A stretch of 48,610 nucleotides of DNA from Promethearchaeota archaeon (GTDB lineage: Archaea > Asgardarchaeota > Thorarchaeia > Thorarchaeales > Thorarchaeaceae), in NCBI GenBank assembly GCA_048939765.1, contig JBHLPF010000019.1, forward strand, positions 26,234 through 74,843, written 5' to 3'. Below the pieces are notes generated by a model. That model was given only the letters and a program-made list of their open reading frames with translations. It was not told the origin of the DNA and did not search any database. This document shows, piece after piece, positions 20,214 to 38,489 of this stretch (its first letter is position 1; each line of letters starts with the position of its first letter). The position numbers and the translations under genes are program-made.

Positions 20214-20225
20214 CTTCTCGGGGCG

Positions 20226-21377: not shown

Positions 21378-22757
21378 TCAATAGAGAAACTCGATTCCGA
21401 GATCAGAAACCTCCTTCTTCACCTTATGGTATATGTCAAAACATTCCTCTGAAGGCTCACCAGTCACTAAGTCACAGCAATCCTGGAAGCGTTTTCCTCT
21501 CGGAGGATCAGGGACCTTGTCAATGAACTTTGGCACAATCTTCTTCACAATCTCATTGGCATCAGATCTCTTGATGCCTGCAGATGCGTATGCCACCTCT
21601 GAGGCAAACATGGGTTCAATAGGTGTCAGATAGTCAAAGTACTTCCCCTTTGCCACGCCGCCCGTTTCTATTGAGGCTCCTGATGAAACGGTCGCAATGA
21701 ATTCGGCAGCAAACTCCTGCAACACCATCTCTGTGCAGGGTCCTGCTGCAGTATAGTTGTAGTAGAGTGCTGGTATCTTTGTGTTTCTGCTCACTGCCTG
21801 AGAATAGAGAGCTGCAAGCCAAATCAGTTCGGGTGATGAGCTTGATGTATATTTGATATGAATCGGAAAGAAGAGAGTCCAAGAGGCACCGTAGGTCAGA
21901 ATCCCTTGGATATGAAATGCCGTGCTCGTCACGGCTGTGCCTTCTGCTCCGCCTGCAAACCCTCCATAGATTGGACCATAGATGCCTGCAATTGGGACAT
22001 TCAACGACTGGAGCAAAGCTGCCCTGTTTAGGAGATCTAGGTCTGTTTTGAGTTCAGCCAGCTCTGCTATCATAAATCCATCAGTCTTCCGAAGACCAAA
22101 ATCTGGATGAAGGCCCGAAGCCAAGGCAATTGCTGACTCCGCAGTGCCAATCGCGTTCATAATGGGAAGTCCAGGCCGGCCCGCTCTTCTCAGAGCCTCT
22201 CTCCCCAATACAACTGTGCGAATTGAGCCTTCTATCTCAAGAGGTGATTTAGCCCGGATATTGGTGCCGTCAACAGAAAGCAAGCATGGAGTTGTGATGG
22301 CATTGGCAATAGGAATTCTCTTTGCATAATTCTCCACAAGACGCATGAAGATGCTCTCATCTGAGACAGTTACACCACCGGCTCCAGCGAATATCCATGG
22401 TTTTTCGTCGGAGTCTGGTTTCCTTGGCAGCAACGTTCTCTGTTCCATCCCTTCTCCTAGAACAGCTTGGTCAAAAGAGGTCTTCAGTTCTTGACGAACC
22501 TCCTTCTCTTCGAAGGCAATGATACGCTCGGTGTCTTTACAATATACCCCCACATCGCAGATGAGATCAAAGGCCGCTTTGAATACTGCGTCCGCAAGAC
22601 CATCATCTGATGGAACGAGAACCTCAGGGTCATAGCTGATGTCATACTCCTTCACAAGTTCGCGAACCCTCGGTGAGAAGACCCTCATGTCAAATTCCTT
22701 TTCTATGAGCGGCTTCCCATCATGTGCTCTCTTGGCAATCTCAATAATCGGAATCAT
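21378..22757 (-). CDS. mtmB: Monomethylamine:corrinoid methyltransferase (MtmB) homologue without pyrrolysine
   Basis: Full-length similarity to Methanosarcina MtmB as recalled: GVYCKDTERII, KSPLE, AGRPG, ELKTDLD, PIYGGFAGG, AGPCTEM, GKRFQDC, DLG. No in-frame TAG. AGGAGG upstream of ATG 22757. Confidence 0.9.
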   Translation of the reverse strand: MIPIIEIAKRAHDGKPLIEKEFDMRVFSPRVRELVKEYDISYDPEVLVPSDDGLADAVFKAAFDLICDVGVYCKDTERIIAFEEKEVRQELKTSFDQAVLGEGMEQRTLLPRKPDSDEKPWIFAGAGGVTVSDESIFMRLVENYAKRIPIANAITTPCLLSVDGTNIRAKSPLEIEGSIRTVVLGREALRRAGRPGLPIMNAIGTAESAIALASGLHPDFGLRKTDGFMIAELAELKTDLDLLNRAALLQSLNVPIAGIYGPIYGGFAGGAEGTAVTSTAFHIQGILTYGASWTLFFPIHIKYTSSSSPELIWLAALYSQAVSRNTKIPALYYNYTAAGPCTEMVLQEFAAEFIATVSSGASIETGGVAKGKYFDYLTPIEPMFASEVAYASAGIKRSDANEIVKKIVPKFIDKVPDPPRGKRFQDCCDLVTGEPSEECFDIYHKVKKEVSDLGIEFLY

Positions 22758-22761
22758 GAAT

Positions 22762-23409
22762 TCAGCCCCTCCTTTTCTCAATCAGCTGAGTTGCCACTCT
22801 CACAGCTTCAGGCGCCGTTTCAGCGAAACCGTCTGCCCCTATTTCATCAGCCCATTCTTGGTTAGTTGGACCTCCGCCTACCATGACAATGAATTTGTCT
22901 CGTTTCCCGGATTGCCTAAGATAATCAATAACATCCTTTTGTCCCCCAATTGTTGAGGTCATGAGTGCTGATATGGCAATTATGTCAGCCTTTATCTTCT
23001 CAGCCTCTTCGATAAACTTCGAAGTTGGAGCATCGACTCCTATGTCGCTCACCTCGAATCCATTGGCCACGAGGAGTGACTTGAAGATGTTCTTGCCAAT
23101 CTCGTGGATGTCACCTCGCACAGTGCCTACTACCACCTTGCCCTTTCTTGGGACATCTCCTGCTTCGATATGGGGTAGAACTACTTCTAATCCTGCCATC
23201 ATTGCTTCTCCTGAGAGCATTAGTTCAGTGAGGAATATCTCCATTCGTTCAAACTGCTCACCCACTATTCTTGCACCTTCAGAGATTCCTTGTTCCAATA
23301 TGTCAAGTGGCGCAGCACCAGACTCGATGGCTTCGGCAGAGAACTTCGAAACCGCCTCTGCATCACCTTCTATGACTGCTTGTTTCAGACTCTCAATTGC
23401 TTCGCTCAT
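22762..23409 (-). CDS. Cognate corrinoid (B12-binding) protein, MtmC/MtbC/MttC-like
   Basis: Cap domain (FLTELMLSGEAM), GDIHEIGKN (DxHxxG), SALMT, VMVGGGP, IGADG. Its stop lies 5 nt upstream of the mtmB-like start. Confidence 0.93.
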   Translation of the reverse strand: MSEAIESLKQAVIEGDAEAVSKFSAEAIESGAAPLDILEQGISEGARIVGEQFERMEIFLTELMLSGEAMMAGLEVVLPHIEAGDVPRKGKVVVGTVRGDIHEIGKNIFKSLLVANGFEVSDIGVDAPTSKFIEEAEKIKADIIAISALMTSTIGGQKDVIDYLRQSGKRDKFIVMVGGGPTNQEWADEIGADGFAETAPEAVRVATQLIEKRRG

Positions 23410-23439: not shown

Positions 23440-23496
23440 ATTATTAGAATGAACATGATGAAAAGGACTGCCAACATGCGTGTACAATAGTGAACA
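23440..23496 (-). promoter_or_regulatory. Conserved regulon promoter element, copy C (upstream of corrinoid-mtmB)
   Basis: Minus strand TGTTCA-ctat-TGTACA-cgca-TGTTGGCA-N13-TGTTCA-ttc-TAATAA, with the same spacing as the copies at 31532 and 33459. Confidence 0.75.
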
Positions 23497-23526
23497 GATT
23501 ACCTCGCCTTTCTCACTCCTCAAATA

Positions 23527-24516
23527 CTAGTCCTCATGACAAGCAACTTGTCGTCCATCTGGCATTGTCTTCAATTCAGGCTCTTCAACGCTGCATTTCT
23601 CTTTCGCAAATGGGCACCTAGTATGAAATCTGCAACCTGTTGGAATGTCAATTGGACTCGGAATCTCCCCTGTAAGTAGGAGCCTCTCTCTCTGAACTCC
23701 AGTTTCAGGGACAGGAACGACTGAGACTAATGCTTTCGTGTAAGGATGACTTGGATTGTCGATAATATCCTTTGTAACTCCTGTTTCAACAACCCGGCCC
23801 AAGTAGGCAATTGCAATCCTGTCAGACATCTGCTTCGCTACTGCTAGATTGTGGGTTATCAGTACAAGCGTTATTCCTTTCTTCTCTTTCAGTTCTAGCA
23901 GCAACTTGAGAATCTGGCCCCTCATTGAAACATCAAGCATGGAAACCGGTTCGTCAGCGATGAGAAGGATAGGATCCAACACAAGTGCAGCTGCTACTGC
24001 TACACGTTGTCTTTGCCCCCCACTTAGTTCATGTGGAATTCTGCCCGCAAACTCCTTGGCGGGACGAAGCCCCACATCCTCGAGTGCAGTCATGACACGC
24101 TCCTCAACTTCGCTAGCGGATGCATAGACATTGTGAATCTTCAAAGGCTCTGCAATAATCTCCCCTATGGTCATGTTGTTACTCAGGGAGCCGTATGGGT
24201 CTTGAAAGATCATCTGAATCCTTCTTCGATACTCCTTGAACTTCCCCTCTTTCAACGCTGAGATTTTCTCTCCCTCGAACCAGATCTCTCCATCGGTCAA
24301 CGCTTCCAGTCGCATAATCAGTCTTGCAATTGTAGTCTTTCCGCATCCGCTCTCCCCTGCAATGGCAAAGACCTCGCCTTGGTTAACCTCTAGGTCGACT
24401 CCGTCAACGGCTCGAATATACATGTCGGATCTCTTTGAAATGAGGCTTGAGAGGAATCCAGCCCTGACTGTGAACCATTTCTTGAGATTCCTGGTTTCTA
24501 GGATTGCCTTCTGCAT
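23527..24516 (-). CDS. oppF: Opp/Dpp-type ABC ATP-binding subunit (OppF-like)
   Basis: GESGCGKTT, FQDPY, LSGGQRQR, IADEPVS, GCRFHTRCP. Confidence 0.92.
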   Translation of the reverse strand: MQKAILETRNLKKWFTVRAGFLSSLISKRSDMYIRAVDGVDLEVNQGEVFAIAGESGCGKTTIARLIMRLEALTDGEIWFEGEKISALKEGKFKEYRRRIQMIFQDPYGSLSNNMTIGEIIAEPLKIHNVYASASEVEERVMTALEDVGLRPAKEFAGRIPHELSGGQRQRVAVAAALVLDPILLIADEPVSMLDVSMRGQILKLLLELKEKKGITLVLITHNLAVAKQMSDRIAIAYLGRVVETGVTKDIIDNPSHPYTKALVSVVPVPETGVQRERLLLTGEIPSPIDIPTGCRFHTRCPFAKEKCSVEEPELKTMPDGRQVACHED

Positions 24517-25502
24517 CAGATCTCATTCCTCCTGAAGCAGGCAACTCTATGCCCTCCTTCGTCAATAAGAGGCGGGTCTCCAGTTCTGCAAATGTCGGCT
24601 GCATAATCGCATCTTGGATGGAAGTTGCATCCTACTGGAGGATCAATTAGGTCGGGGGGATTCCCAGGGATGAAATCTATCTCCTTGTCAGCGAGAATGC
24701 TTGGGAATGATGAAATGAGCTTTCTGGTATAGGGATGGGCTGGTTCGTTGAAAAGCACCTCCGCCGCAGCCTCTTCTACTATCTTTCCAGCATACATTAT
24801 GATTATCTTGTCACATGTTTCAGCTAGAACTGACAAGTCATGTGTTATAATCAGGAGAGATAGGCTCGTTCTTTGTCTGAGTTGCTTGAAGAGGTCAAGA
24901 ATCTGTGCTTGAATCATCACATCCAGTGCAGTAGTTGGCTCATCCGCAATAACAAGGGGTGGATGCAGCACAAGCGCGAGGGCAATCATAAGACGCTGTT
25001 TCATTCCTCCACTGAGTTCATGTGGATATGCTCTCGCACGCGATCTATCAATTCCCACGGATTCTATCAGTTCAAGTGCTATTTCTCTGGCTTTCTCTTT
25101 TGGCATACGCTGATGGATTTGTATTGCATTGACCATCTGGTCAATTACACGATGCACTGGATTCAGCGAGTTCATAGCTCCCTGGAAAACCATTGAAATT
25201 TCCTGCCAACGAAATGCCTGTATCTCCTTTGTCTTCATAGTGAGAATATCACGGTTGTTGAAGAGAGCCTGCCCCCCTTCAATGACGCCCTCTCTTGGGA
25301 GAATCTTCAACAATGTCATTGCAGTGGTCGTCTTTCCGCAGCCGCTTTCCCCGCTTAGACCTACAAACTCTCCACAATTCACGGCAAAGTCGATATCATC
25401 GACTGCTTTGACAATTCCTTGGGATATGTGATAGTATACCTTCAGGCCAGAAACCTTGAGTAGTGCCTGTCCAGCAGGGACTTGTGAAGATGCTTCAGTC
25501 AT
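24516..25502 (-). CDS. oppD: Opp/Dpp-type ABC ATP-binding subunit (OppD-like)
   Basis: GESGCGKTT, LSGGMKQR, IADEPTTALD, GCNFHPRC. Confidence 0.92.
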   Translation of the reverse strand: MTEASSQVPAGQALLKVSGLKVYYHISQGIVKAVDDIDFAVNCGEFVGLSGESGCGKTTTAMTLLKILPREGVIEGGQALFNNRDILTMKTKEIQAFRWQEISMVFQGAMNSLNPVHRVIDQMVNAIQIHQRMPKEKAREIALELIESVGIDRSRARAYPHELSGGMKQRLMIALALVLHPPLVIADEPTTALDVMIQAQILDLFKQLRQRTSLSLLIITHDLSVLAETCDKIIIMYAGKIVEEAAAEVLFNEPAHPYTRKLISSFPSILADKEIDFIPGNPPDLIDPPVGCNFHPRCDYAADICRTGDPPLIDEGGHRVACFRRNEI

Positions 25503-25510
25503 TTAACTCA

Positions 25511-28231
25511 CTACCTCCTCCTAAGTCTTGGATTGACAATCTCATCCATGGCATATCCTACCATTGACACACCGAGGAGGAGAAGCACGACCATAATCCC
25601 TGGCGGAAACACTAGCCACCAGAGGTTATTAGACATTGAACCAGCATTGAATGCGAGATAGAGCATAGTTCCCCAGCTGATCATTGCCGGGTCTCCCAGG
25701 CCAAAGAAGTCTAGGACGACTTCTGAAAGAATAGCCCATGCAGTGACTAGGATTGTATTGGCAACAACAAGTGGAGCAACTGCTGCCAACACATGTTTGC
25801 CCATGATATAGACGTTACCTCCACCAACCGCTCTTACCCTCTCGATGTAAGTCCGTTCCTTTACCGATAATACCTGCCCTCTTACAATGCGTGCGGTTGA
25901 GGACCATGAGAACAGACCAATCACAATAATTAGGGTCACAATCGATGGACCAAGCACAGCAGCCATGACGATCATCAATAGCAGGCTTGGAATCACAAAG
26001 AAGATGTCTGTGAATCGCATGAGGAATGAGTCTATAATCCCGCCATAGTAGCCTGCTACAAGGCCAATAAGAGTGCCTATTACTACAGACATCGCTGTTG
26101 CAACCATTCCAATTAGAAGTGTTATTCTCACGGCGATGATCAATTCACTATAAACATCTCTACCCAATTGGTCAGTCCCCATTAGGTGGTAGCCTGGAAA
26201 ATCAAGAGGAACTACCCATGGTGCCTGAAGAATGCCCTGGACTACGAGGCCAACACTAATTATTCCTATGAGAGCAATGAGCAACCTCGGGAGATATTCT
26301 TTCAGATTCTCGATGCTGAACTCAGCCCTTGCGCTCAATATGCCCCTTATAATGATGACTCCTGCTATGACACCAACTCCTCCTGAATAGAGCAAGGTAG
26401 CACTACTCTCAACCGTTGCGGATTGTGCTCCAAGACTCCACGCAATGAATAGAATTAGTCCTCCACTCAGAATAGTGAGGACGTATCTTGGAATAGATGC
26501 AATCTTGAATCGGTCAAATATCCACCAGCTAACTGTTGCGATGATGAGCAAAATCGCACCCGCTGATATCATAAACATCTGCAGTTCTGGCATTAAATCA
26601 GGAGGTTGGTAAATATTACCAGTGAAGAATGCCTCAGGGTCATATGGAGCTATTATGTCACCAAAAAGAGTCATTCCTGCAAACATAGCTACTAAGGCTG
26701 CTCCTACCGTGCCCATTCGAGTTCTTATGAATCGGCTTGATGTGGCACCAAGACTTTTCCTCCTACCTAGGAGAAATCCAACCGTTATACCAACGAGTGC
26801 AACATGCATTACGGAAGGATGTGCAATAGATGCTAGAGTCATCGCCCAGTCAGGATATTCAGCGCCAGGCGGTATTGGTGGAAATGGTCTCAGTCCGAAG
26901 AAAGCAGCTCCCCAAAAGAAGCCCCATTCTGGGATGAAGACTCCAGTTACAGCCACGAGACTGAGTGCAATCAGATTCACGAGTAGGAAGATAGTTGAGA
27001 AACGAACTAAGATCTGAGACCGTTTATTCCTCCAAGCATAAATCAAGTTTGAAGGAGTCAGTGCGCTGAGTCGATTCCTTATGAACTGCAGAGCAGCTCT
27101 CCGTTTTACAATTAAGATGAGAATGAATAGGGGAAGAATTGTGTATATCCCAATGACAGCCCATGTGGATAAAAGAGCGACTACGGCTATTACCAGTATA
27201 CCATAATATGAGAGTGGTCTTGACGGTTTCTCATCACCAATCGTGAATTCTGCTCCAACCCTAATTCTTGGATCCAGATAGAAATAGATGAAATCTGCAA
27301 GAAGATTGGCTATCACCACGACTATGGTTATCATGAAGAAAGCAGCTTGGAGAAGTGGATAGTCTCGATAGTAGACCCCTTCCCAAATCAGATTCCCGAT
27401 TCCAGGGTATGAGAATACAACTTCTGTCTGTAATGCCCCTGCTACGGAGAATCCAAGCTGAAGTGCAATGACAGTTGTTATGGGAATCATCGCATTCGGC
27501 ATTGCTTCTCTATTCAACTGAGCTTTCTCAGATCTTCCTTTCGCTTTTGCAGTGAGCATGTAGTCCTCACTCAATACATCCAATAGTGCGTTTCTTGTGA
27601 TTAGTGCAAAAGAGCCCAGGATTGCAACAATGAGCACTGTCCATGGGAGCATCAAGTGAGATATCATGTCGATAACGAGGCCAACAGGATCGCCTGTGAA
27701 ATCCATTCCCGGAGTGGTCAAACCTGGAGTCGCTGGGAACCACCCAAGGCCAAATGCGAAAAACATGATGAAGAACATGGCTAGCCAAAAGGTGGGAATA
27801 GAGTATGTAACTAAGGAGAATAGAAGGCCTACGAGGTCTGCTGCCTTGCCTCGACGCCAGGCTGAGTTCTTGCCTATCCAGATTCCAACCACAATCGCCA
27901 CAATTGATGCAGGAATCATTAGAATCAGAGTGTTTCCGAGATGGTACATCAATACTGATCCTACTTCTTCTCTGAAATGGAATGAAAGTCCAAATCTCCC
28001 GGTAAGGAAATTCCCAAGGAAGAGAATAAACTGTTCCCAAAGCGGTTTATCAAGTCCAAATTGCTGAATCAATATCTGCTGTGCCAAATCGGAGATATTA
28101 GGATTTCTAGCAAGGAAAGTCGTTGGGTCCCCTGGCAGAATATGGAATATCATAAAATCAATTGCAAGTACAATGAAAATTGTTACAATTGCTTGGGCAA
28201 TTCGTTTTAGCAGCACATCTCTTAATGCCAT
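25511..28231 (-). CDS. Fused ABC permease (OppB + extra membrane segments + OppC in one 906-aa chain)
   Basis: The N-terminal third is OppB-like (LPGDP, FGLDKP, TAKAKG, LDPRIR). The C-terminal part is OppC-like (HLMGTDQLGRD, KERTYIERVRAVG, WWLVFPPG, NPRLRRR). Many extra hydrophobic segments lie in between. Confidence 0.88.
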   Translation of the reverse strand: MALRDVLLKRIAQAIVTIFIVLAIDFMIFHILPGDPTTFLARNPNISDLAQQILIQQFGLDKPLWEQFILFLGNFLTGRFGLSFHFREEVGSVLMYHLGNTLILMIPASIVAIVVGIWIGKNSAWRRGKAADLVGLLFSLVTYSIPTFWLAMFFIMFFAFGLGWFPATPGLTTPGMDFTGDPVGLVIDMISHLMLPWTVLIVAILGSFALITRNALLDVLSEDYMLTAKAKGRSEKAQLNREAMPNAMIPITTVIALQLGFSVAGALQTEVVFSYPGIGNLIWEGVYYRDYPLLQAAFFMITIVVVIANLLADFIYFYLDPRIRVGAEFTIGDEKPSRPLSYYGILVIAVVALLSTWAVIGIYTILPLFILILIVKRRAALQFIRNRLSALTPSNLIYAWRNKRSQILVRFSTIFLLVNLIALSLVAVTGVFIPEWGFFWGAAFFGLRPFPPIPPGAEYPDWAMTLASIAHPSVMHVALVGITVGFLLGRRKSLGATSSRFIRTRMGTVGAALVAMFAGMTLFGDIIAPYDPEAFFTGNIYQPPDLMPELQMFMISAGAILLIIATVSWWIFDRFKIASIPRYVLTILSGGLILFIAWSLGAQSATVESSATLLYSGGVGVIAGVIIIRGILSARAEFSIENLKEYLPRLLIALIGIISVGLVVQGILQAPWVVPLDFPGYHLMGTDQLGRDVYSELIIAVRITLLIGMVATAMSVVIGTLIGLVAGYYGGIIDSFLMRFTDIFFVIPSLLLMIVMAAVLGPSIVTLIIVIGLFSWSSTARIVRGQVLSVKERTYIERVRAVGGGNVYIMGKHVLAAVAPLVVANTILVTAWAILSEVVLDFFGLGDPAMISWGTMLYLAFNAGSMSNNLWWLVFPPGIMVVLLLLGVSMVGYAMDEIVNPRLRRR

Positions 28232-28273
28232 TCTAGTCCACTCTGTTCCTCGTGACTTTTGAAAAATGGGGAA

Positions 28274-28300
28274 TGAACAGACAGTAATACTGTCTGTTCA
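28274..28300 (-). terminator. Perfect stem-loop between SBP and permease genes
   Basis: TGAACAGACAGT-AAT-ACTGTCTGTTCA (12-bp perfect stem), followed on the minus strand by TTCCCCATTTTTC. Confidence 0.7.
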
Positions 28301-28325
28301 ATCTCTTATTTGGTTCTGTTTGATG

Positions 28326-30320
28326 TTATCTTCTTCTAGCCACCAAAACCACAACGAGCACCAAAACCACTGCGCCTATGCCAACTACAAGGAGTAATTC
28401 CATGGGCAACGGCGGTGGTGGCGGAGGTGGTGTTGTAGTCCCTGTGGTTGGAGTCGTTGTTGGTGTTGTCGGTACATCAACCTCTAGCCATGAATCAATG
28501 TTCCACATAGACAGAATACCGCTCTGCCAGTCTGTGTGTGTAAAAGTCCAGGCATCATTTCTGTATAGCTCGATATCATTGAACTCTACGAGAACAATGA
28601 TACTGGAGTCGTTGTACATTATCTGCTGGAACTCATCACAGAGCGCCCCTCTAGTCACGTCATTAGTAGTCAGTTGTTGCTCCTTGTATATCTCATCAAC
28701 CCTTGTAATGTTCACAGCGTTTGGATTAATCCAGCTGTCGCTGGTCATATACTGCATCATGCTATTTGGATCTGCAATCTGACTATAGAAGGTCAGAGCT
28801 ATGTCAAAGTTCCACATCTCAGTAGCGGTTTCTGCTGTGAAGGTTGTTTCTTCTAATGGGATTGTAGTGATGTCAAATCCCGCAGCCTCAAGATATGCAC
28901 TAACAAGAGACACGATTGTGAAGTCTGTAGGAACGCCAGTGACGTACTTGATTGTAAAGGACAGCGTTTCCGTAGTCCCTTCTACGTCTTTCTCATAGAC
29001 CCCCGCTAGATTCTCTACCCATCCTGCAGCCTCGAGAGTTGCCCTAGCTTCAGCAATGCCCTTAGGATAGGTAATAAGCTCATCATTGTGCCACTTGAGA
29101 GTAGTATGGATCAACGATTCAGCCGCATTCGCGTGTCCAAGATACGCAACCTCAGCTATCTGTGCCTTGTCTATAGCCTGGTTTATCGCCTTCTTGACCT
29201 CTGGTTGACGAAGGGCGACTTTCCTGGGATTGCTAGTGTAGTCAACTTTACCTTCACCAAAACCACCACCAGTACCATTTGCATAAGTGTAGTTAACAAA
29301 CTGATTCACAAGAAGACCTTCCCAGCCCATCCACGGATTCTCATTTATTGTAACCGTGTTAGGAATGGTTCCCAACTCGATGAATTGTGGTGCTGTTTCA
29401 CAGAAATCAATGTCGCCAGCTTTTACAGCCTCAGTCATGACCTCTACGGTGCTGTAGAATGTAATCAAGATTTCATCAATATTGGGGGCGCCAAGATGAT
29501 AGTCGGGATTCGCATCAAGTCTGATGTACTCTCCCACCTTGTATTCATCTAGCATGAATGCTCCAGTGCCAATCATTGGGGTTGGCCAATCTTGTTCGAG
29601 GTACATGCCCCAGACGATTGCATCCCAATAATATGCCGTATCATACCAATAACTTCCTATCCCATAAGTTTCGTTGTGCCATGTCAGTGGATCCCAGAGA
29701 TGTTCAGGAAGAATCGGGACATAGGTCAGCCCTGTAAGGAACGCCTCTTGGTTGATTTGCACCGAAGTGCCATTGTACCTGTCATACACGCCTAGCTCCC
29801 AAGCAGGATCGCCATACGAACCACCCGGATCCCAATACCAGATGTTTTCATAGCCATTGTCCACAAAATTGAGGACTAGTGTGTAGTCGTCTGGAACTCT
29901 GATGTTTCTATGGTCAATACGAGGTGTCTGAGCTACCCAATATCCAAGCCAAGTCCAAGTGAATAGCGTCCAATTGGCATCATGCGCAGTAAATGGAGTT
30001 CCATCATGCCATGTTGCATCTGGATCGATATGCATTACTAACTGGGAGCCATTTGCAGCCCATTCCCAGCTCTCTGCGAGACAGGGTTGGATGCCCCAGT
30101 TATCATCCCATCTGACCAGTGGGTCATATATCCAATTAATAAACTCCCATGAGCTGATCTCAGCGGCCAGGATTGGATTAAGGCTGTCTGGTTCATCAAA
30201 CATCCCTATCTTCATTATCTTGGGTGTCTGCGCTACAGCCGTAGTTGGTGCGAAAGCAAACACTTGTAAGACCAGGAAGACCGTCAGAGTCAGTGACAGG
30301 AGTGCGTCTTTCCTTTTCAC
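28326..30320 (-). CDS. ABC transporter substrate-binding protein, family 5 (peptide/nickel type), C-terminally anchored
   Basis: Signal peptide, EPDSLNP, IYDPLV, CLAESWE, WHDGTPFTAHD, IGTGAF, Thr/Pro linker, TM helix and RRR tail. GTG at 30320 preferred; the ORF is open from 30371. Confidence 0.9.
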   Translation of the reverse strand: MKRKDALLSLTLTVFLVLQVFAFAPTTAVAQTPKIMKIGMFDEPDSLNPILAAEISSWEFINWIYDPLVRWDDNWGIQPCLAESWEWAANGSQLVMHIDPDATWHDGTPFTAHDANWTLFTWTWLGYWVAQTPRIDHRNIRVPDDYTLVLNFVDNGYENIWYWDPGGSYGDPAWELGVYDRYNGTSVQINQEAFLTGLTYVPILPEHLWDPLTWHNETYGIGSYWYDTAYYWDAIVWGMYLEQDWPTPMIGTGAFMLDEYKVGEYIRLDANPDYHLGAPNIDEILITFYSTVEVMTEAVKAGDIDFCETAPQFIELGTIPNTVTINENPWMGWEGLLVNQFVNYTYANGTGGGFGEGKVDYTSNPRKVALRQPEVKKAINQAIDKAQIAEVAYLGHANAAESLIHTTLKWHNDELITYPKGIAEARATLEAAGWVENLAGVYEKDVEGTTETLSFTIKYVTGVPTDFTIVSLVSAYLEAAGFDITTIPLEETTFTAETATEMWNFDIALTFYSQIADPNSMMQYMTSDSWINPNAVNITRVDEIYKEQQLTTNDVTRGALCDEFQQIMYNDSSIIVLVEFNDIELYRNDAWTFTHTDWQSGILSMWNIDSWLEVDVPTTPTTTPTTGTTTPPPPPPPLPMELLLVVGIGAVVLVLVVVLVARRR

Positions 30321-30361
30321 AGATGTCACATCCTGAAGTAAAGATAGTCGATAGATACTGG

Positions 30362-30418
30362 TGTACACCAATTAAAATCCACCGAACACTCTTGTTCATA
30401 GTGCACTAGTCATGAACA
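30362..30418 (-). promoter_or_regulatory. Variant of the regulon element upstream of the SBP/ABC operon
   Basis: Minus strand TGTTCA(30418), TGAACA(30398), TGTTCG(30388), TGTACA(30367), giving spacings of 20, 10 and 21 nt. The last two spacings match the full copies. Confidence 0.55.
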
Positions 30419-30461
30419 TGCATTTCTATGAATGATTTCGCACATTTCTCGTGCCAAACAA

Positions 30462-31454
30462 TCACTTTCTCAGTCTATCAGCGATGACTGCAATCATAAG
30501 GGTGGCCATAATAGCTGCTAGGCCAAGAGCAGGGTCAATTTCCATCGGAGGCAATGTGGGACTGGGTTCTGCTGTAGTTGTCGAAGAAGATGTAGTCGTA
30601 GAAGATGTCGTTGCAGTTTCAAATCCATTTTCGGAAAGCCAGAGCCCGATTTGTAGCATCATGTTCCATTCTGATCCCTCATCATCATACACATTATCCC
30701 ATGCCACCCCGTCTCGGTCAGCATCCTCTTCCCATTCAACGTGGGGACCCGAAAGAACTATCCGCCCCTGGCCATACTCATAGGATATTATAGCTGGCTC
30801 ATCATTGACATCGTACGTGGCGATAACATTCACTCCGTCTGTTCCGGCGGTTTCAAAATATGGTCCACCGTAGTACATCACAGTGTGAGAGTCTGGCTCT
30901 CCAGATAGATCCATTTCAGTGACCGCCTTGTTCAGGATTATCCTTGTCATGTTATGACCTGGCCAGGCTGCAATTTCTTCTATGGGTCCTATGCCCAGAT
31001 TCGGGTAAAGGTCAAGTGAATATCCAATGTTTCCGCCCTCCCATCTAATGTTGTCACACGCAAAGTAAGCCCCAGCACAGACTCCAAAAAAGGCTCCTCC
31101 ATTCTCAACAAAGTTCCGTATCCTAACGACCCCCGAATTGGTGAGGTCTTGAAAATACGACCACGCCCATCCTCCTGGTATGGCAATGATGTCATAATCA
31201 ACAAGTATGTCATTTCTAATGTCTGCAGCAGTCACGACATCAACTGTAGCGTTCATCCATCTAAACATCCAGAAGAGAGCTGTGCGACTTGAAAGACTAG
31301 ATGATTGTTCATCGGTTACGCCTTCATAGACAGCCACCTTGATTCCAGTCAGGTCGGTTGGTTGAACTTCGTCTGAATACGCGGGATTCGCAACAGCCAA
31401 TGTCACAAAGAGAAGTGTAACTACCATGACAATTGGTCTGCGATTGCGTTTCAT
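30462..31454 (-). CDS. Secreted, membrane-anchored BPL-N / class I glutamine amidotransferase-like hydrolase
   Basis: Signal peptide, IAIPGG, GVCAGAY (nucleophile elbow Cys), YYGGP, SGPHVE (His-x-Glu), Ser/Thr linker and C-terminal TM. Confidence 0.8.
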   Translation of the reverse strand: MKRNRRPIVMVVTLLFVTLAVANPAYSDEVQPTDLTGIKVAVYEGVTDEQSSSLSSRTALFWMFRWMNATVDVVTAADIRNDILVDYDIIAIPGGWAWSYFQDLTNSGVVRIRNFVENGGAFFGVCAGAYFACDNIRWEGGNIGYSLDLYPNLGIGPIEEIAAWPGHNMTRIILNKAVTEMDLSGEPDSHTVMYYGGPYFETAGTDGVNVIATYDVNDEPAIISYEYGQGRIVLSGPHVEWEEDADRDGVAWDNVYDDEGSEWNMMLQIGLWLSENGFETATTSSTTTSSSTTTAEPSPTLPPMEIDPALGLAAIMATLMIAVIADRLRK

Positions 31455-31531
31455 TGATCAACCTCACTATTTCATTGGAATACCACTCAAGGTGCAATAC
31501 TGGTTATGGCTGTTTAGGTGCTGTCTATTCT

Positions 31532-31588
31532 TGTTCAGTGTTGAACATCCATGTTGGCACCTTTCTTTAGATTGTTCACACTCTATAA
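31532..31588 (+). promoter_or_regulatory. Conserved regulon promoter element, copy A (upstream of first M28 gene)
   Basis: TGTTCA-gtgt-TGAACA-tcca-TGTTGGCA-N13-TGTTCA-cact-CTATAA, ending 38 nt before ATG 31626. Confidence 0.75.
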
Positions 31589-31625
31589 CCAGACCTCCGC
31601 AGCAAGAAATAGTGGGGACCTGTAT

Positions 31626-33428
31626 ATGGTTGAGAAGACATCCATCTCAGAGATAAGAAAGACCATCGAGCATCTTTGCGCTTTTGGACAGAAGGTTGCA
31701 GGAACAAAAGCGGAGGTCCAAGCTGCAGACTTCCTATATGACAGTCTTGTGAATTTTGGTTTCACGGATGTTGAGAAGCAGCCATTTGATGTTGTCGGAT
31801 GGGATCCACAAACATGTAAGGTGAAGACATCCAAGCCCGTTGAAAGAGAATTGGAATGTGCCCTGTTTCCACATGGGAAATCTGAGTCAGTCGAAGGATT
31901 GCTAGCCCCTGTTGATCGGGAAACCAATGAAGATGATCCAAATTCATCTTCGGTTGGAAAGGGGCTGATCGGTTTCACTGAATGGGGACCTGATACTTAC
32001 CTCAGCCCGAGATTCACCTACTACCGCGCTGCGAAACTGGGCTATAAGGGCTTGATTGTGGCAGCACCAGATGAAGGCGATATGCTGAAAGTTGTAGTAA
32101 TTCCTGAGAGATTCCTCAAAATCCCAGTTGTTTGTATCACAAAAGAAGAGGGAGATTCTCTCCGCTCAATGATGAATGATGGCGAAGTGATGGTGAGAAT
32201 TGAAACCGAAGTTGAAGCAACAGAACGACTGGACTCTCATAATGTGGTTGCGATTCTTGAGGGCGATGGAACAACTGATGAAGAAGTCGTGGTAGGAGCA
32301 CATTATGACTCATGGTTCCAAGGAGCAGCTGATAATTGCGCTCAGGCAGCAATTGTGCTCGAACTGGCGAGGATATTTCAGGATCAAGCCAAGCTGGGCA
32401 AGGTTCCCAAGAGAACCATACGATTCCTTTTCTATGGTGCTGAGGAGAGTGGATCTGATGATTTCTACTTCTGGCTGAATGGATCAAAAGCCTATGTTAG
32501 AGATAACAGAGAATCAGTAGGCAGGACTGTTGCAGTATTGAGTTTGGACTCTACAGGATATCCTCACCCATCAGCAGACTACATTTTTGCCACTGGAGAA
32601 ATGCTTGGATTCGCCAAATCCTTGACTGTAGAGCATGGAAGAGCCCGTTCCTTGACATTTAAAATCCCACCCAGCTATGGCAGTGACCACTGGTTCTTTG
32701 AATTAGAAGGAGTCCCTACAATATACGGTGTTTCAGGAGTCCCATCAGAACATGGCATAGCTCAACCAAGCCCATTGTATCACACGACAAAGGATGATCC
32801 CGACCATTTGGACTATGATGCTTTGCAGTTCTATGCAGAGTTCATGAAGAACGCGCTTCACTATCTCGCAGACGCAGATGTGTTACCAATAGATATCTCC
32901 GTACCACTTGAAAGATTTGAATCAATTCTCTCAAAATACGACGAAATGGAAGGAAACGAATTTGACCTAAAGCCACTAATTGCCAAGGTGAGGGACTTGA
33001 TGAACTTCCAACCCTCCCTGAAGAAGATAGTCGAAGATTGTGAATATGATTACGCCCCTCTGATAAACGAGTTTCTCTTGAAAGCGACTAGGGGATTCAA
33101 TCGTACTATTGGATGGAACACCCGTCCGATAGAAACATACAGCATTAACTATCTATATCGCCTTGAGATGATTGAAGACTATATCCATCTCACAAATGCC
33201 ATTGCGAGCATACGAAACATCCCAGTAGCTACTTTCGATCGAGATTCTGCAAAGAGAATCGAGTCAAAGCCTGACAATCCCTACAATTGGCTAAGAATTC
33301 ATGACTCTCTTGCAAATATAGAAAAAGAACGCGCCAGAATTGGCAAAGAGATTGAGAAGGAGCTAGAGAATCTATCAACAATGTTAGGTAGCGTATCTGA
33401 GGACCTAAGCAAGTTGATGGGAAACTAG
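31626..33428 (+). CDS. M28 family metallohydrolase with PA-like insertion (paralogue 1, complete metal ligands)
   Basis: GAHYDS, GAADN, GAEESG, LSLDS, SDH, YHTTKDD. ATG 31626 preferred because the 31551 start lies inside the promoter element. Confidence 0.88.
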   Translation: MVEKTSISEIRKTIEHLCAFGQKVAGTKAEVQAADFLYDSLVNFGFTDVEKQPFDVVGWDPQTCKVKTSKPVERELECALFPHGKSESVEGLLAPVDRETNEDDPNSSSVGKGLIGFTEWGPDTYLSPRFTYYRAAKLGYKGLIVAAPDEGDMLKVVVIPERFLKIPVVCITKEEGDSLRSMMNDGEVMVRIETEVEATERLDSHNVVAILEGDGTTDEEVVVGAHYDSWFQGAADNCAQAAIVLELARIFQDQAKLGKVPKRTIRFLFYGAEESGSDDFYFWLNGSKAYVRDNRESVGRTVAVLSLDSTGYPHPSADYIFATGEMLGFAKSLTVEHGRARSLTFKIPPSYGSDHWFFELEGVPTIYGVSGVPSEHGIAQPSPLYHTTKDDPDHLDYDALQFYAEFMKNALHYLADADVLPIDISVPLERFESILSKYDEMEGNEFDLKPLIAKVRDLMNFQPSLKKIVEDCEYDYAPLINEFLLKATRGFNRTIGWNTRPIETYSINYLYRLEMIEDYIHLTNAIASIRNIPVATFDRDSAKRIESKPDNPYNWLRIHDSLANIEKERARIGKEIEKELENLSTMLGSVSEDLSKLMGN

Positions 33429-33458
33429 GGGACCAGGCAGAAAGTCGTCTAGAGATAA

Positions 33459-33515
33459 TGTTCATTGATGTTCAACAGTGTTGGCACTCTTCTTATGGTT
33501 GTTCATTCCTTAAAT
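33459..33515 (+). promoter_or_regulatory. Conserved regulon promoter element, copy B (upstream of aminotransferase operon)
   Basis: TGTTCA-ttga-TGTTCA-acag-TGTTGGCA-N13-TGTTCA-ttc-CTTAAAT. Confidence 0.75.
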
Positions 33516-33586
33516 CAATGGAGCAGAGACGCTCGCATCCACATTGAATTCAAGCTCGACTCGGAGCGTCATGGAGAGATTTTGTA

Positions 33587-34882
33587 ATGGTAGATAGAGC
33601 TGAAATAATAGAGAAAGAGTCCAAGTACATGGTCCCCGCATATGCTCGCAAACCCATAGTCATCTATGAGGGGAAAAACACCATTGTACGCGATCTTGAC
33701 GGAATGGAGTACATTGATTGTATTAGTGGAATCTCGGTTGTGAATGCAGGTCACAGTCCAGAAAGGATTGTAAAAGCAGGAGCGGAGCAACTATCGAAGC
33801 TAATTCACTGTTCTGGGCTCTACCACAATGTTCCTCAAACATTGCTGGCTGAGAAACTGGCTGGGGTCACACCAGACAACCTAACAAAATCATTCTTCTG
33901 CAACAGCGGCGCCGAGGCTGTTGAGGGGGGTGTCAAGATTGCTAAGAAGTATAGCGTGACTCAGGGCCGTACAGGTGCCGGTGTCATTGCATTGGAGGGC
34001 TCCTTCCATGGCCGACTCAGCCTCTCACTAACACTCACTGGGCAATCAAAGTACAAGCATGGCTTTGGGACCTTTGCCAATGCTCCCGGTGTTGTGCATG
34101 CTCCAATGCCGTATTGCTATAGATGCCCGCTTGAATTTCCTGACTGTAACACCGAATGTGCAAGAAGAGTCGAGGACATCATCAAGTATCATACCACAGG
34201 CGATGTTGCAGCCATGATTGTTGAGCCAATCTTAGGTGAGGGCGGCTTGGTGGTGCCGCCAAAGGAGTATCATGATCTGGTGCAAGAGATATGCAAAGAG
34301 CACAATATTGCCTACATTGCTGATGAAGTCCAAACTGGCTTTGGAAGAACAGGAAAGATGTTTGCAATCGAAGAGTTCGGAATCAAGCCTGATATCCTCA
34401 CAATGGCAAAGGGATTGGGTGCAGGGATGCCGATTGGCGGCTATATCACTACAGACGAGATTGCGGACTGTCTAGAGTCAGGTGATCACTTCTCAACCTT
34501 TGGCGGGAATCCTGTTTGCTGCGCTGTGGCTCTAGAGAATCTCAACTATCTTGAGGATGCAGGGCTGGTAAAGAATTCGGAGAAGATTGGCGGCAGTCTG
34601 ATGAGACAATTAGAGGAGGTTCAAGAGCGCAGCAAACACATTGGTGAAGTTCGAGGAAGAGGACTCATGATAGGCATCGAGCTGGTGAAAGACACAGACA
34701 CAAAGGAACCAGCGGTTGATGAAACACAAGCAGTAGCCAAGAATCTCATGAAGAATGGTGTCTTGGTTGGAACAGGCGGAGTAAAGAAGAATGTGATTCG
34801 TCTTCAGCCTCCGCTATGCATGACTGAAGAGGAATCTCAGAAAGTGCTGAGCCTGCTCGAAAAGGAATTCAAGCAGCTGTAG
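33587..34882 (+). CDS. Class III PLP aminotransferase (ornithine/4-aminobutyrate/diamine transaminase-like)
   Basis: NSGAEAVE, SFHGR, EPILGEGG, DEVQTGFGRTG, MAKGLG, STFGGNP. Confidence 0.92.
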   Translation: MVDRAEIIEKESKYMVPAYARKPIVIYEGKNTIVRDLDGMEYIDCISGISVVNAGHSPERIVKAGAEQLSKLIHCSGLYHNVPQTLLAEKLAGVTPDNLTKSFFCNSGAEAVEGGVKIAKKYSVTQGRTGAGVIALEGSFHGRLSLSLTLTGQSKYKHGFGTFANAPGVVHAPMPYCYRCPLEFPDCNTECARRVEDIIKYHTTGDVAAMIVEPILGEGGLVVPPKEYHDLVQEICKEHNIAYIADEVQTGFGRTGKMFAIEEFGIKPDILTMAKGLGAGMPIGGYITTDEIADCLESGDHFSTFGGNPVCCAVALENLNYLEDAGLVKNSEKIGGSLMRQLEEVQERSKHIGEVRGRGLMIGIELVKDTDTKEPAVDETQAVAKNLMKNGVLVGTGGVKKNVIRLQPPLCMTEEESQKVLSLLEKEFKQL

Positions 34883-34884
34883 CG

Positions 34885-36684
34885 ATGCTTGGAGGCTATG
34901 GTGTGGAGAATCCTTCGCTCGATAGGATTAAAGCTACTATGACTGACCTACATTCCATTGGAAATAAGATAGCTGGATCGCCCAATGAGCGTCGTGCCTC
35001 TGAGTACATTATTGAATGTCTTCGTGGATTTGGTTATGAAGAAATAGAAACCATGACTTTCGAGATCCGTGGATGGAATCCCAACTCTTGCAGCATCAAA
35101 ATTCTAAAACCAATTGAGAAGGAAATCGAGGCCGCTCTCTTTCCATACTCTCAGAGCCTAAGAACCATAGGGAAGTTGACACAGATAAGTCAGATAGACG
35201 AATACGAAACCAACAATGATGGTGCCTCAATAGGGCTGTCTGATTGGGGCCCTCACCTCTATTTGTCTCCTTCACGCACCTACTACAGAGCCATACGACG
35301 AGGGCTAGATGCAGTTCTAGTTTCAACTCCTGATGAAGGAGATCTTCGCAAAGTGGTGGTAGTCGAATCCGGTAGACTGCTGAAGATTCCTGTCATAAGC
35401 ATCTCAAAGGAAGATGGCGATTTCCTTCTGAGCCTCCTAGAGAAGAATGAGGTCGAGTTGGAAATTGATGCGGACGTCGATATCCCCAATACTGCAGAGT
35501 CAATGAACATAGAAACCGTGCTAAAAGGGCAAGAGCAAGAGATCTCCGAACATGAAATCTTTGTGGGGACTCATGTTGATAGCTGGTTTACTGGGGCTGC
35601 AGATAATTGCGCTCCTGTAGCTATTTTTCTGGAGATTGCCAGGCTACTCCAGGAACATGTTCAGAATGGCGGTATATTGAAGAGAAGTGTGAGATTCTTC
35701 TTCTTTGGTGCAGAAAATGGTGGAAGTGAGGGGTTCTACAACTGGTGCAATGGTTCCAAGGTGTATTGGGACCAGAATCAAAGCGTATCCAAGACTGTAG
35801 CAGCATTTCTGAGCCTTGATTCAGTCGGATTCCCAGAGCCTGCTGCAAGATTCATAGGCACGACTGCAGACTTGCTTCAATTTGCTAAGGGCATTGAATC
35901 TGCAGACAACGCCATTCGAGGATTCGAGTTTTATGATCCTCCAGGGTATGGTAGTGACCACTGGTTCTTTGAGATTTCAGGGGCGCCGACAATTTACGGA
36001 GTTACATTTCCAAGTCATCTTTACCAAACCCAAAAGGATGACCTTGACCACATTGACTACAGTGCAGTTATGCGCTATGCAAAATTCATGAACGATGCGC
36101 TCATCAAATTAGCAAATGCAAGTCTGCTGCCAATCGACATATTCACTCCGTTGATGAGATTCGAAACTATTCTCTCCAAATACAACAAGATGAGAGGCTG
36201 TCCTTTTGACATGACACAGCAGCTACTTCGGATTAGAGATATCCGAACAAAGAAGAGTCATTTCAACAAGAAGCTGAACTCTATTTCCAAGAAGGGAAAT
36301 CATAAGCAAATCCAGAATGCAAATCGGTTTCTCAGCTCAGTGGCTCATCTCATCAACACCACTGTTGGATGGCTATGGAGGGTGACAGCTCCTGATGATG
36401 TTGACTACTTGTCAAGGTTGGAGCTAATTGAAGACTATGTTGCGCTTAATGCCGCTATAATGGCACTAAGAGGCACTCCTGTGGGCAGTCTTACTCCCGA
36501 GTATATTGACAAATATGAGAGCCAATCTGACTTGGCCTATAACTGGTTACCAATACACAAGCCTCTGGTCAAGCTTGAGAGAGAGCGATCCAATGTCTAC
36601 AGGCTCATCGAAAAGGAGCTTGAACTCATTTCAAAGATTCTGACTATGGTAGAGAAGGGAATTAGCGAATTACTAGTTGAATAA
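34885..36684 (+). CDS. M28 family metallohydrolase-like protein (paralogue 2, two metal ligands substituted)
   Basis: Colinear with 31626..33428 (WGP..YLSP, GAADNCA, LSLDS.G, YGSDHWFFE, RLE.IEDY, YNWL.IH), but GAEE is GAEN and YHT is YQT. Confidence 0.82.
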   Translation: MLGGYGVENPSLDRIKATMTDLHSIGNKIAGSPNERRASEYIIECLRGFGYEEIETMTFEIRGWNPNSCSIKILKPIEKEIEAALFPYSQSLRTIGKLTQISQIDEYETNNDGASIGLSDWGPHLYLSPSRTYYRAIRRGLDAVLVSTPDEGDLRKVVVVESGRLLKIPVISISKEDGDFLLSLLEKNEVELEIDADVDIPNTAESMNIETVLKGQEQEISEHEIFVGTHVDSWFTGAADNCAPVAIFLEIARLLQEHVQNGGILKRSVRFFFFGAENGGSEGFYNWCNGSKVYWDQNQSVSKTVAAFLSLDSVGFPEPAARFIGTTADLLQFAKGIESADNAIRGFEFYDPPGYGSDHWFFEISGAPTIYGVTFPSHLYQTQKDDLDHIDYSAVMRYAKFMNDALIKLANASLLPIDIFTPLMRFETILSKYNKMRGCPFDMTQQLLRIRDIRTKKSHFNKKLNSISKKGNHKQIQNANRFLSSVAHLINTTVGWLWRVTAPDDVDYLSRLELIEDYVALNAAIMALRGTPVGSLTPEYIDKYESQSDLAYNWLPIHKPLVKLERERSNVYRLIEKELELISKILTMVEKGISELLVE

Positions 36685-36686
36685 AG

Positions 36687-37586
36687 GTGATGAAAATGGA
36701 AAGACGTCTAGGAGTTGCCGGACTACAGCTAGAGAAAGATCCATACGATGAAGACAAGAATTTCAGCAATCTTGAACAAACAGCTAAGTGGGTAAGGAAA
36801 ACATATCCTTGGGTTGACCTGGTCTTCACAGGAGAGCTATATCTACAACAGTATGGGATAGATGATTGGAAAGATATGGCTCAACCAATGCCAAATAGCA
36901 TGACGGAAAAGCTTTCAGAAATCGCCAAGGATACTGAATGCTGGTTCGTTCCGGGTTCATTTCTGGAACAGGATGGTAGTAAGATATTCAATACAGCCAT
37001 TGCATTCAATCCAAAAGGTGAGCTTGTGGCAAAATATAGAAAGATCTATCCTTGGATGCCTTTTGAAGATACAAATTTCGGGACGGATTTCGTGACTTTT
37101 GATATTCCAGGAATCGCGAGAGTGGGTCTTGTTATCTGCTATGACTTGTGGTTTCCTGAGATATTCAGAACGCTAGCATGGATGGGTGCTGATGTCATTC
37201 TCCAGCCGTCTGCGACCTATACACCTGACCGACAAGCAGAGTTGATTCTCGTACCTGCTCAAGCAATCATGCACCAATGCTATGTCCTCAACTCGAATGT
37301 TGTTAGTTCCAAAGGCGGAGGACTCTCCATATTCGCAGATCCTGAAGGCAGGGTATTGCAGCAGGTTGGCACGCATGAGGAGATTATGACAGAGGTCATT
37401 GACCTGGATAAGGTCGCTTGGATTCGTCAGAATGGGTCATTTGGTATAACGCCGCTTTGGAAAAGTCTCAGGGATTCTCCTCTCAACATGAAGTTCCCGG
37501 TCTATGAGAGGTTCGAGGAAGGAGAGATTCTCAAAACATTAGGTGAATTGAAGGTTCAGAAGAGCATCCGTGAGTGGAAAGTCTAG
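36687..37586 (+). CDS. Carbon-nitrogen hydrolase (nitrilase/amidase family)
   Basis: Glu-Lys-Cys triad: GELY, YRKIYPW, ICYDLWFPE. Confidence 0.9.
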   Translation: MMKMERRLGVAGLQLEKDPYDEDKNFSNLEQTAKWVRKTYPWVDLVFTGELYLQQYGIDDWKDMAQPMPNSMTEKLSEIAKDTECWFVPGSFLEQDGSKIFNTAIAFNPKGELVAKYRKIYPWMPFEDTNFGTDFVTFDIPGIARVGLVICYDLWFPEIFRTLAWMGADVILQPSATYTPDRQAELILVPAQAIMHQCYVLNSNVVSSKGGGLSIFADPEGRVLQQVGTHEEIMTEVIDLDKVAWIRQNGSFGITPLWKSLRDSPLNMKFPVYERFEEGEILKTLGELKVQKSIREWKV

Positions 37587-37641
37587 GATGACTCAGTAAT
37601 GCGATATGCTTTTCGCTGACCAATGTGATTGAAGAACTTGA

Positions 37642-38484: not shown

Positions 38485-38489
38485 GAGAA

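Follow-up and report, generated by a model that had tools for sequence, protein, structure and literature searches.

Ribbon-helix-helix (RHH) proteins such as Arc, CopG, omega, MetJ and NikR assemble side by side on one face of the DNA, while in Methanothermobacter the helix-turn-helix (HTH) regulator TrpY binds arrays of TGTACA boxes over overlapping archaeal promoters, combining autorepression with ligand-dependent repression of a metabolic operon. The Msr proteins combine an HTH domain with a V4R-type domain. Most Asgard archaea have not been cultured, and their transcription regulation is poorly understood. Among archaeal cellular RHH transcription factors are aCcr1 and CdrS (PMC9976878, PMC7439475), the former repressing by occlusion and regulating its own gene (PMC9976878), and in Methanosarcina acetivorans the dedicated regulators MsrA-MsrF switch methyltransferase/corrinoid-protein operons by substrate (PMC3419521). 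Here we analyze a 48,610-nt stretch of a Thorarchaeaceae genome (GCA_048939765.1, contig JBHLPF010000019.1; hereafter the window) in which a 57-bp element built of four short boxes recurs at the promoters of methyltransferase, transporter and hydrolase operons. The best explanation of these promoters, and in our view a probable one given the sequence comparisons and structural models, is that the element is controlled by a ligand-responsive, autoregulated RHH repressor: it would be the operator of a Thorarchaeota-specific one-component transcription factor encoded in the same window (Table 1).

The element has the consensus TGTTCA-N4-TGWWCA-N4-TGTTGGSA-N13-TGTTCA, with boxes 1 to 4 at 0/10/20/41. 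Three copies that the initial annotation of this DNA had quoted (elements A, B and C) were recovered at the positions and on the strands listed in Table 1. The pattern TGTTCA-N4-TGTTCA-N4-TGTTGGCA, with up to three mismatches, matches only these three sites in the window, where dinucleotide shuffles predict 0.01, while the lone TGTTCA hexamer occurs there at chance frequency (44 vs. 37). The full composite site is found nowhere else in the assembly, which was searched as a whole (3.37 Mb in 108 contigs, 88.5% complete). A looser genome-wide scan, for at least three TGTTCA, TGAACA or TGTACA boxes within 60 bp, returned 14 clusters, compared with one in the reversed-sequence control; six of the 14 are helically phased, with spacings in multiples of ~10.4 bp, and five of those six belong to the present locus (window positions 20175, 23450, 30362, 31532 and 33459). 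Spacings of 10, 10 and 21 bp at the target promoters, and of 31 and 21 bp at the promoter of the candidate regulator, bring the boxes within ~35 degrees of one another on one face of B-DNA, and this phasing points, as the initial annotation had supposed, to a multimeric factor bound along one side of the helix. Its view that the copies do not stem from a recent duplication also holds, since their spacers differ while boxes and spacing stay the same.

Comparison across Thorarchaeota extends this picture. With two mismatches allowed, the core pattern matches nine of the 16 genomes from the same genus, plus one from a different genus within the family, at one to three copies per carrying genome, and the backwards-read control gave no matches. 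Altogether, ~20 other Thorarchaeota genomes or contigs carry the element ahead of the same operons. Mapping of the window proteins onto the loci found with the core pattern shows that it always precedes the same three operons, even at 45–55% protein identity (G018), and in G004 it lies upstream of the methyltransferase operon as well as the peptidase operons although the former and the latter are 1.4 Mb apart. Scanning species-representative genomes with an alignment of the regulator added seven further distant loci, where regulators 46–48% identical accompany the same arrays. Over 27 elements, the information content is 1.37 bits per position within the element versus 0.22 bits in the 40–60 nt flank. 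At orthologous promoters the boxes and their spacing persist whereas the flanks have drifted apart, so these alignments identify the element as a phylogenetic footprint rather than a duplicated cassette. The proposal that the methyltransferase, transporter and hydrolase operons form one regulon, made earlier from the boxes in the window, is thereby borne out by comparative genomics. Neither an operator nor a box cluster accompanies the second MtmB paralogue of G015 (68% identical), and none was found at distant MtmB homologues in other families.

The boxes themselves vary in a restricted way. In a tally of 38 distinct elements and 15 regulator promoters from ~20 genomes or contigs, box 1 reads TGTTCA (33/38) or TGTACA (5/38), box 2 TGTTCA (18/38), TGAACA (11/38) or TGTACA (9/38), and box 4, absent from the first search pattern, TGTTCA (35/38) or TGTACA (3/38). 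Box 3 is of the TGTTGG type, TGTTGGGA in most species, and its distance from box 4 is 21 bp in 37 of the 38 elements. A two-fold symmetric dimer reading TG-WW-CA would explain why box 2 can stand in either orientation.

These patterns leave little room for an element that is not a protein operator, whether a mobile or duplicated promoter cassette, a sigma-54-type promoter or a leader RNA structure, and we regard this whole group of explanations as highly improbable. A cassette is hard to reconcile with spacers that differ between copies and with boxes that orthologous sites retain across deep divergence. Element A could form a pairing between its complementary TGTTCA and TGAACA boxes, but in class B elements box 2 repeats box 1 directly, so no hairpin is common to all, and any plausible start site falls downstream of most of the element. 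The sequence TGTTGGCAC does resemble the −24 half of bacterial sigma-54 promoters. However, a sigma-54 promoter in this TGGCAC reading was ruled out, as the archaeal genome encodes no sigma-54 (a search for the Sigma54_DBD DNA-binding domain found none), no −12 GC/TTGC follows, and box 3 is mostly TGTTGGGA. The genome does encode a TATA-binding protein (TBP; archaeal, Thorarchaeota), which together with the absence of sigma-54 indicates that promoters here are of the archaeal type, with a transcription factor B (TFB) recognition element (BRE) and a TATA box. Close homologues of the locus proteins likewise come from Thorarchaeota metagenome-assembled genomes (MAGs).

The position of the TATA box relative to the four boxes is central to how the element might act. 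The genome's promoter consensus, derived from the sequences upstream of its tRNA genes, is a purine-rich BRE followed by CTTTAAATC, ending 27–31 nt before the mature 5′ end. Across the 38 elements, a TATA-only matrix of nine columns gives a single fixed peak at element position 30 (mean +0.9 vs. a background of −7.8, standard deviation 4.9), and 37 of the 38 exceed the genomic 95th percentile within positions 28–33. Beyond box 4, TATA enrichment is diffuse and unfixed (30/38 within 15 positions), and the A/T-rich word found there is missing in several species. The promoter of the substrate-binding protein (SBP) gene is especially informative in this respect. A variant of the element had been reported there (30362–30418), and it proves to be both real and conserved: this element D is laid out as TGTTCA-N14-TGAACA-N4-TGTTCG, then ATTTTAAT, then TGTACA, with ATTTTAAT forming a clear TATA at 30378–30371, between the last two boxes, and with the SBP gene probably starting at GTG 30320 after GGATGTGA. 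In more distant species the SBP promoter takes the canonical 0/10/20/41 form, with ATTTTAAT or ATTTATTAAT between boxes 3 and 4. Furthermore, elements of classes A, C and D are followed, 25–35 nt beyond box 4, by conserved motifs resembling a Shine-Dalgarno (SD) sequence. The fixed peak, the SBP TATA at the same place and the SD-like motifs together favor a TATA box at element positions 30–38 and a predicted start site near position 62, which would put box 3 on the BRE side and box 4 between TATA and start site. Counted 23–25 nt on from the TATA, the predicted starts of elements A, B, C and D fall near 31594, 33521, 23434 and 30347. The promoter geometry given in the initial annotation, with box 4 in the BRE position and the TATA behind it, seems to need revision in view of the peak at 30–38 and the ATTTTAAT found there in SBP promoters.

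The gene for the candidate regulator has boxes in its own promoter, at 0/+31/+52, where a TATA-like CTTATG (20171–20176) overlaps the first box and the last box overlaps the ATG at 20232. Relatives share this layout (cTTA-TGTTCA, TGAACA 31–32 bp on, and TGTTCATG 20–21 bp further, ending in the start codon), which is the same in 15 distinct orthologous promoters whose spacers are unrelated. A GGTGA-type SD sequence directly before the last box implies that the regulator mRNA has a leader. The variants earlier noted in the divergent region between the M20 peptidase and regulator genes (20074–20213) are thus partly upheld: the boxes at 20175 and 20206 are conserved, as is one at 20227–20232, just past that region, while the stretch 20074–20140 is kept only in the closest relatives. 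As in repressor-type operators, then, the sites flank or overlap the TATA box, both in the elements and at the CTTATG and ATG of the regulator gene, with start sites predicted. That boxes flank the TATA on either side, and in the regulator gene cover the TATA, start region and start codon, suggests repression by occlusion together with autoregulation.

The initial annotation had named the protein at 20226..21374 for binding experiments, and it remains the best candidate binder, given its likely RHH fold, a distribution across genomes that matches the element, and the boxes in its own promoter. This protein of ~380 aa (family P0001; residues are numbered here by the 389-aa open reading frame) has 40 database relatives, of which those named by source are hypothetical proteins of Thorarchaeota-type MAGs; the protein was found only in Thorarchaeota. 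A genome from a different taxonomic family gave a weak match at 22% identity. Pfam gave nothing for the whole protein or for 23 family members (E ≤ 1). Its architecture comprises an RHH-like head (29–68), a PxCxxC motif (72–77), an H-NOX/Bet3-like middle part (~89–228) and a ferredoxin-like C-terminal part (~300–378).

The most conserved stretch is the N-terminus, RVHLHTTIS-x2-TR-x-LL-x2-LAGETGRINDVLEEAV, in which R29, H31, H33, T34 and T35 are invariant within an extended, strand-like segment followed by two helices (38–51 and 54–68). R29, H31, H33 and T35 alternate, as in the DNA-reading strand of RHH proteins; a conserved G49-E-T/S-G52-R53-x-N55 turn separates the helices, and strand, helix and helix span ~45 residues, though the monomer model draws no strand. 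When a 56-residue AlphaFold monomer model of this region was compared by VIA-align with 48,161 representative chains, the top ~37 rows were nearly all RHH proteins, aligned over almost their full length. One such match is PutA52 on operator DNA (2rbf; Z 5.1, root-mean-square deviation 2.3, 43/44 residues aligned), and others include TacA, CdbA, ORF56, CopA, ArtA, AmrZ, NikR, SvtR, Arc, omega, ParD, FitA and ParG. An hhalign comparison with the genome's own RHH_1 proteins gave the expected register (P 0.003). The ESM Atlas placed the N-terminus among RHH_1 clusters at a score of 0.75, which is below the tool's meaningful level, and sequence-profile searches of the PDB with full and N-terminal alignments returned nothing meaningful. 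Taken together, the model and the residue pattern make an RHH fold of the N-terminus likely.

The remainder of the protein is less easily placed. Residues 89–228 matched Bet3/TRAPP chains (Z 7.0–7.2, 114–127 residues aligned of ~150–165) and H-NOX chains (Z 6.4–6.6, 122–127 of ~181–185), with Z values in the tool's common range in both cases; the Pfam V4R model gave no match on the protein. With the full model, Foldseek and VIA results were dominated by helical hairpins and designed proteins, with only weak H-NOX/Bet3 and ferredoxin-like likeness. We treat these model-based assignments as leads only. The PxCxxC motif (window 20418–20435) directly follows RHH helix B and is invariant in all 23 aligned family members. 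A dimer would gather four of these cysteines, possibly into a metal, Fe-S or redox-sensing site.

On this basis, we propose that each N-terminal RHH dimer reads one pseudo-palindromic TGWWCA hexamer. Three dimers would sit side by side at one-turn spacing on boxes 1 to 3, and a fourth two turns on at box 4, so that a weak TATA is enclosed by boxes 3 and 4, with all boxes on one helical face. Once bound, the oligomer would block assembly of TBP, TFB and RNA polymerase and thereby repress, and the regulator would repress its own gene through the three boxes over its TATA, start-site region and start codon. The repressor would come off the DNA when its C-terminal domains or the invariant CxxC sense a ligand or a redox or metal signal, and four units would then be switched on: the peptide-type ATP-binding cassette (ABC) importer, two hydrolase/aminotransferase units and the corrinoid-dependent MtmB-like methyltransferase. 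Binding of the boxes by the 380-aa protein, the sign of regulation, the stoichiometry and the ligand are all points that we infer from sequence, conservation and structural models.

Several observations weigh against this proposal, the first set of them concerning the promoter. The BRE+TATA 14-mer matrix stands at background at both candidate TATA positions and does not discriminate between them, the stretch between boxes 3 and 4 is only weakly TATA-like, and in the window the good TATA-like words CCTTAAATC and CTATAA also follow box 4. Box 3 is always TGTTGG or TGTTCG and not TGWWCA, which the model leaves unexplained. Activated promoters, too, typically combine a weak core with upstream sites. 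Alternatively, therefore, the same RHH protein on the same operator might be an activator or a ligand-dependent dual switch, with boxes 1–3 recruiting TBP/TFB and the TATA perhaps after box 4; we think this possible, at perhaps one chance in a few. No BRE-like purine runs are present, three of the four boxes are located ahead of the core promoter, the CCTTAAATC that follows box 4 in element B matches the tRNA-Cys TATA exactly, the CTATAA behind element A resembles the tRNA-Arg TATA, and class B elements keep ATAAATC or ATAAGTC at positions 50–58 in many species. However, the word after box 4 is unfixed in class C and absent from several class A copies and from class B of G004 and G006, whereas SBP promoters have an unambiguous TATA between boxes 3 and 4 and the TATA-only profile peaks solely at position 30. 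A start ~24 nt after a TATA behind box 4 would moreover exclude from the transcript the SD-like motifs seen in classes A, C and D. At the regulator's own promoter, where boxes cover the TATA, start region and ATG, repression is the only effect they can have. The box geometry thus appears to favor repression over TFB recruitment, and we consider repression the more probable sign of regulation.

The second set concerns the protein. Its fold-search scores are modest (Z ~5) and come from a monomer model without a strand (predicted local distance difference test score 68); Pfam found no RHH domain in residues 20–80 or the N-terminal 61 aa even at E ≤ 10, a genome search with PF01402 (RHH_1) matched nine other genes and not this one, and the hhalign probability against the genome's own RHH_1 proteins is only 11%. 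The regulator occurs in nine of 24 family relatives, all nine of which also carry the element; 14 have neither, and one 62%-complete genome has the element without the protein. The regulator gene always lies within the cluster. Within the family, however, the MtmB-like gene occurs in the same nine genomes, so the cluster appears to have been gained or lost together and the co-distribution of protein and element is not independent evidence. A different, unlinked transcription factor could read the boxes, such as an HTH protein for TGTACA-type boxes or the Lrp/AsnC protein at 14813..15319, in which case the 380-aa protein would be a co-regulated cluster member of some other role. The modest fold match, the confounded co-distribution and the precedent of the HTH protein TrpY on TGTACA arrays speak for such a factor, but we find it unlikely: across ~20 loci no other regulator-like gene is syntenic with the cluster, the Lrp gene lies outside the conserved neighborhood, the invariant alternating R-H-H-T strand and the RHH-dominated match list give the 380-aa protein a DNA-reading head, and boxes in both orientations at fixed one-turn spacing suit RHH arrays.

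The genes behind the elements (Table 1) offer some indication of what the putative repressor might sense. Since the cluster combines an importer, M20, M28, CN-hydrolase and deacetylase proteins, an aminotransferase and a corrinoid methyltransferase, the inducer could be an imported N-methylated amine or peptide, or a product thereof. The MtmB-family methyltransferase is full length without an in-frame stop, i.e. of the non-pyrrolysine type, and is 73–96% identical across the cluster-carrying Thorarchaeota. A BPL_N/GATase-like gene precedes the Opp-type importer on the minus strand, between the other operons.

Table 1. Promoter elements and genes of the locus, in window coordinates.
Feature	Position	Strand	Details
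Element A	31532..31588	+	Boxes 31532-37, 31542-47, 31552-59, 31573-78; TATA-like 9-mer ~31562-31570; M28 peptidase promoter
Element B	33459..33515	+	Boxes 33459-64, 33469-74, 33479-86, 33500-05; TATA-like 9-mer ~33489-33497; aminotransferase operon promoter
Element C	23440..23496	-	Boxes 23496-91, 23486-81, 23476-69, 23455-50; TATA-like 9-mer ~23466-23458; corrinoid/methyltransferase promoter
Element D	30418..30362	-	TGTTCA 30418-13, TGAACA 30398-93, TGTTCG 30388-83, TGTACA 30367-62; Opp-type ABC operon promoter
Regulator promoter/operator	20171..20234	+	TGTTCA 20175-80, TGAACA 20206-11, TGTTCA 20227-32
Candidate regulator (P0001 family, ~380 aa)	20232..21374	+	Open reading frame 20205..21374, 389 aa; likely start 20232
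Corrinoid (B12-binding) protein	23409..22762	-	Behind element C
MtmB-like methyltransferase (MtmB family)	22781..21378	-	Behind element C; same operon as the corrinoid protein
Opp-type ABC transporter operon	23527..30320	-	Behind element D; SBP, fused permease, two ATPases
M28 peptidase (M28a)	ATG 31626	+	Behind element A
Class-III aminotransferase (AT3) operon	33587 (AT3)	+	Behind element B; AT3, M28b, CN hydrolase, polysaccharide-deacetylase-family protein, SDR
Hydrolase/aminotransferase genes as a whole	31626..39248	+	M28a, then AT3 to SDR

Some further features of the locus deserve mention. The M20 peptidase gene (18742–20043, minus strand) probably starts at ATG 20043, after GGAGG, and not at GTG 20181; in G004, G018 and L043/L044 it lies within the aminotransferase operon, downstream of the CN hydrolase, which suggests that it belongs functionally to the regulon and has moved beside the regulator in the present species. 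The fused permease (25511–28231, minus strand) is a single 906-aa open reading frame with OppB-like and OppC-like halves, recognizable by two BPD_transp_1 stretches and OppC_N, and is kept in relatives. Between the SBP stop and the permease start, the sequence at 28274–28300 (minus strand) reads TGAACAGACAG-N5-CTGTCTGTTCA followed by a T-tract, and its pairing is kept in all relatives through compensatory changes (GGAACAG...CTGTTCC; GACAC...GTGTC); it looks like an intra-operon RNA hairpin, a terminator-attenuator after the binding-protein gene. The TGAACA...TGTTCA pair it contains (28300..28274) was considered as a sixth operator and rejected, since relatives keep the pairing and lose the outer box bases. 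The stretch GGTTATGGCTGTTTAGGTGCT (31455–31531), immediately before element A and towards the divergent BPL_N gene, is conserved and is possibly the core promoter of that gene, in which case boxes 1 and 2 of element A, which form a perfect TGTTCA-N4-TGAACA palindrome, may act in both directions. The sixth phased cluster of the genome-wide scan (G000:C94:5156-5205; L075 ~3157-3206), TGTTCG-N6-TGTACA-N14-TGTACA-N6-TGAACA with spacing 12/20/12, occupies the divergent spacer between a ThiF-family and a polysaccharide-deacetylase-family gene, and may or may not belong to the regulon.

We found no description of the element or of the 380-aa protein in the literature, within which work on Asgard regulation was not surveyed systematically. 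The novelty lies in the protein family with its domain make-up, in an array of 10/10/21 spacing that brackets an archaeal TATA, and in a defined Asgard regulon. The locus amounts to a compact and complete hypothesis, comprising an operator with single-base rules, an unannotated candidate regulator, five target promoters and a predicted TATA-clamping geometry, which recombinant protein and synthetic DNA would suffice to test in vitro without culturing the organism. A functional link also emerges between a non-pyrrolysine MtmB-like methyltransferase and a peptide-type importer, amidohydrolases and aminotransferases, which narrows the search for the substrate of this enzyme. More speculatively, the protein could represent a new class of Asgard one-component regulators, with an RHH head, an inter-subunit CxxC and an H-NOX/V4R-like sensor, that forms an octamer-like clamp on the TATA, between two operator boxes exactly two helical turns apart, and switches a whole catabolic regulon for methylated substrates and peptides between repression and activation in response to a methylated amine, a corrinoid or redox state. 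We regard this as a tentative and rather unlikely extension; if true, this would be among the first regulons of Asgard archaea resolved down to operator, regulator and targets.

Among known systems, NikR offers a close parallel in several respects. In E. coli, Helicobacter and Pyrococcus it is a one-component regulator with an RHH head and a C-terminal sensing and oligomerization domain, it reads half-sites spaced by about two helical turns on the same face, it acts as the repressor of an ABC importer operon, and its chains 1q5v (Z 4.7), 2ca9 and 2bj1 are among the matches of the N-terminal model. However, there is no sequence similarity, NikR reads two boxes while the Thorarchaeota element has four, and the ACT-like tetramerization domain of NikR contrasts with a Thorarchaeota sensor part of ~300 aa that is H-NOX/Bet3-like and ferredoxin-like. 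TrpY shares the arrays of TGTACA-type hexamers, the autorepression and the ligand-dependent repression, but is an HTH protein with other spacing rules. The Msr regulators are likewise dedicated to methyltransferase/corrinoid-protein operons, yet show no sign of homology, and the V4R Pfam model misses the Thorarchaeota protein. The archaeal aCcr1, at ~58 aa, has a 9-bp box in one or two copies and a role in cell-division control, and differs in having neither a ligand-sensing domain nor a phased four-box array.

The arrayed RHH repressors (omega with its direct and inverted heptads, CopG, Arc/Mnt, and MetJ with its tandem met-boxes) resemble the proposed system in their 6–8 bp sites, each taken by one dimer, in tolerating both orientations, in the cooperative binding of adjacent dimers on one face and in autoregulation, and omega and Arc chains (1irq, 2bnw, 1arq) appear in the match list. 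They are, however, small bacterial, plasmid or phage proteins without sensor domains, whose sites overlap the −35 and −10 regions of sigma-70 promoters, and the 10/10/21 spacing with the TATA in the gap is particular to the Thorarchaeota element. An RHH protein on phased short repeats belongs to a well-known class of mechanism, which our result extends and does not overturn.

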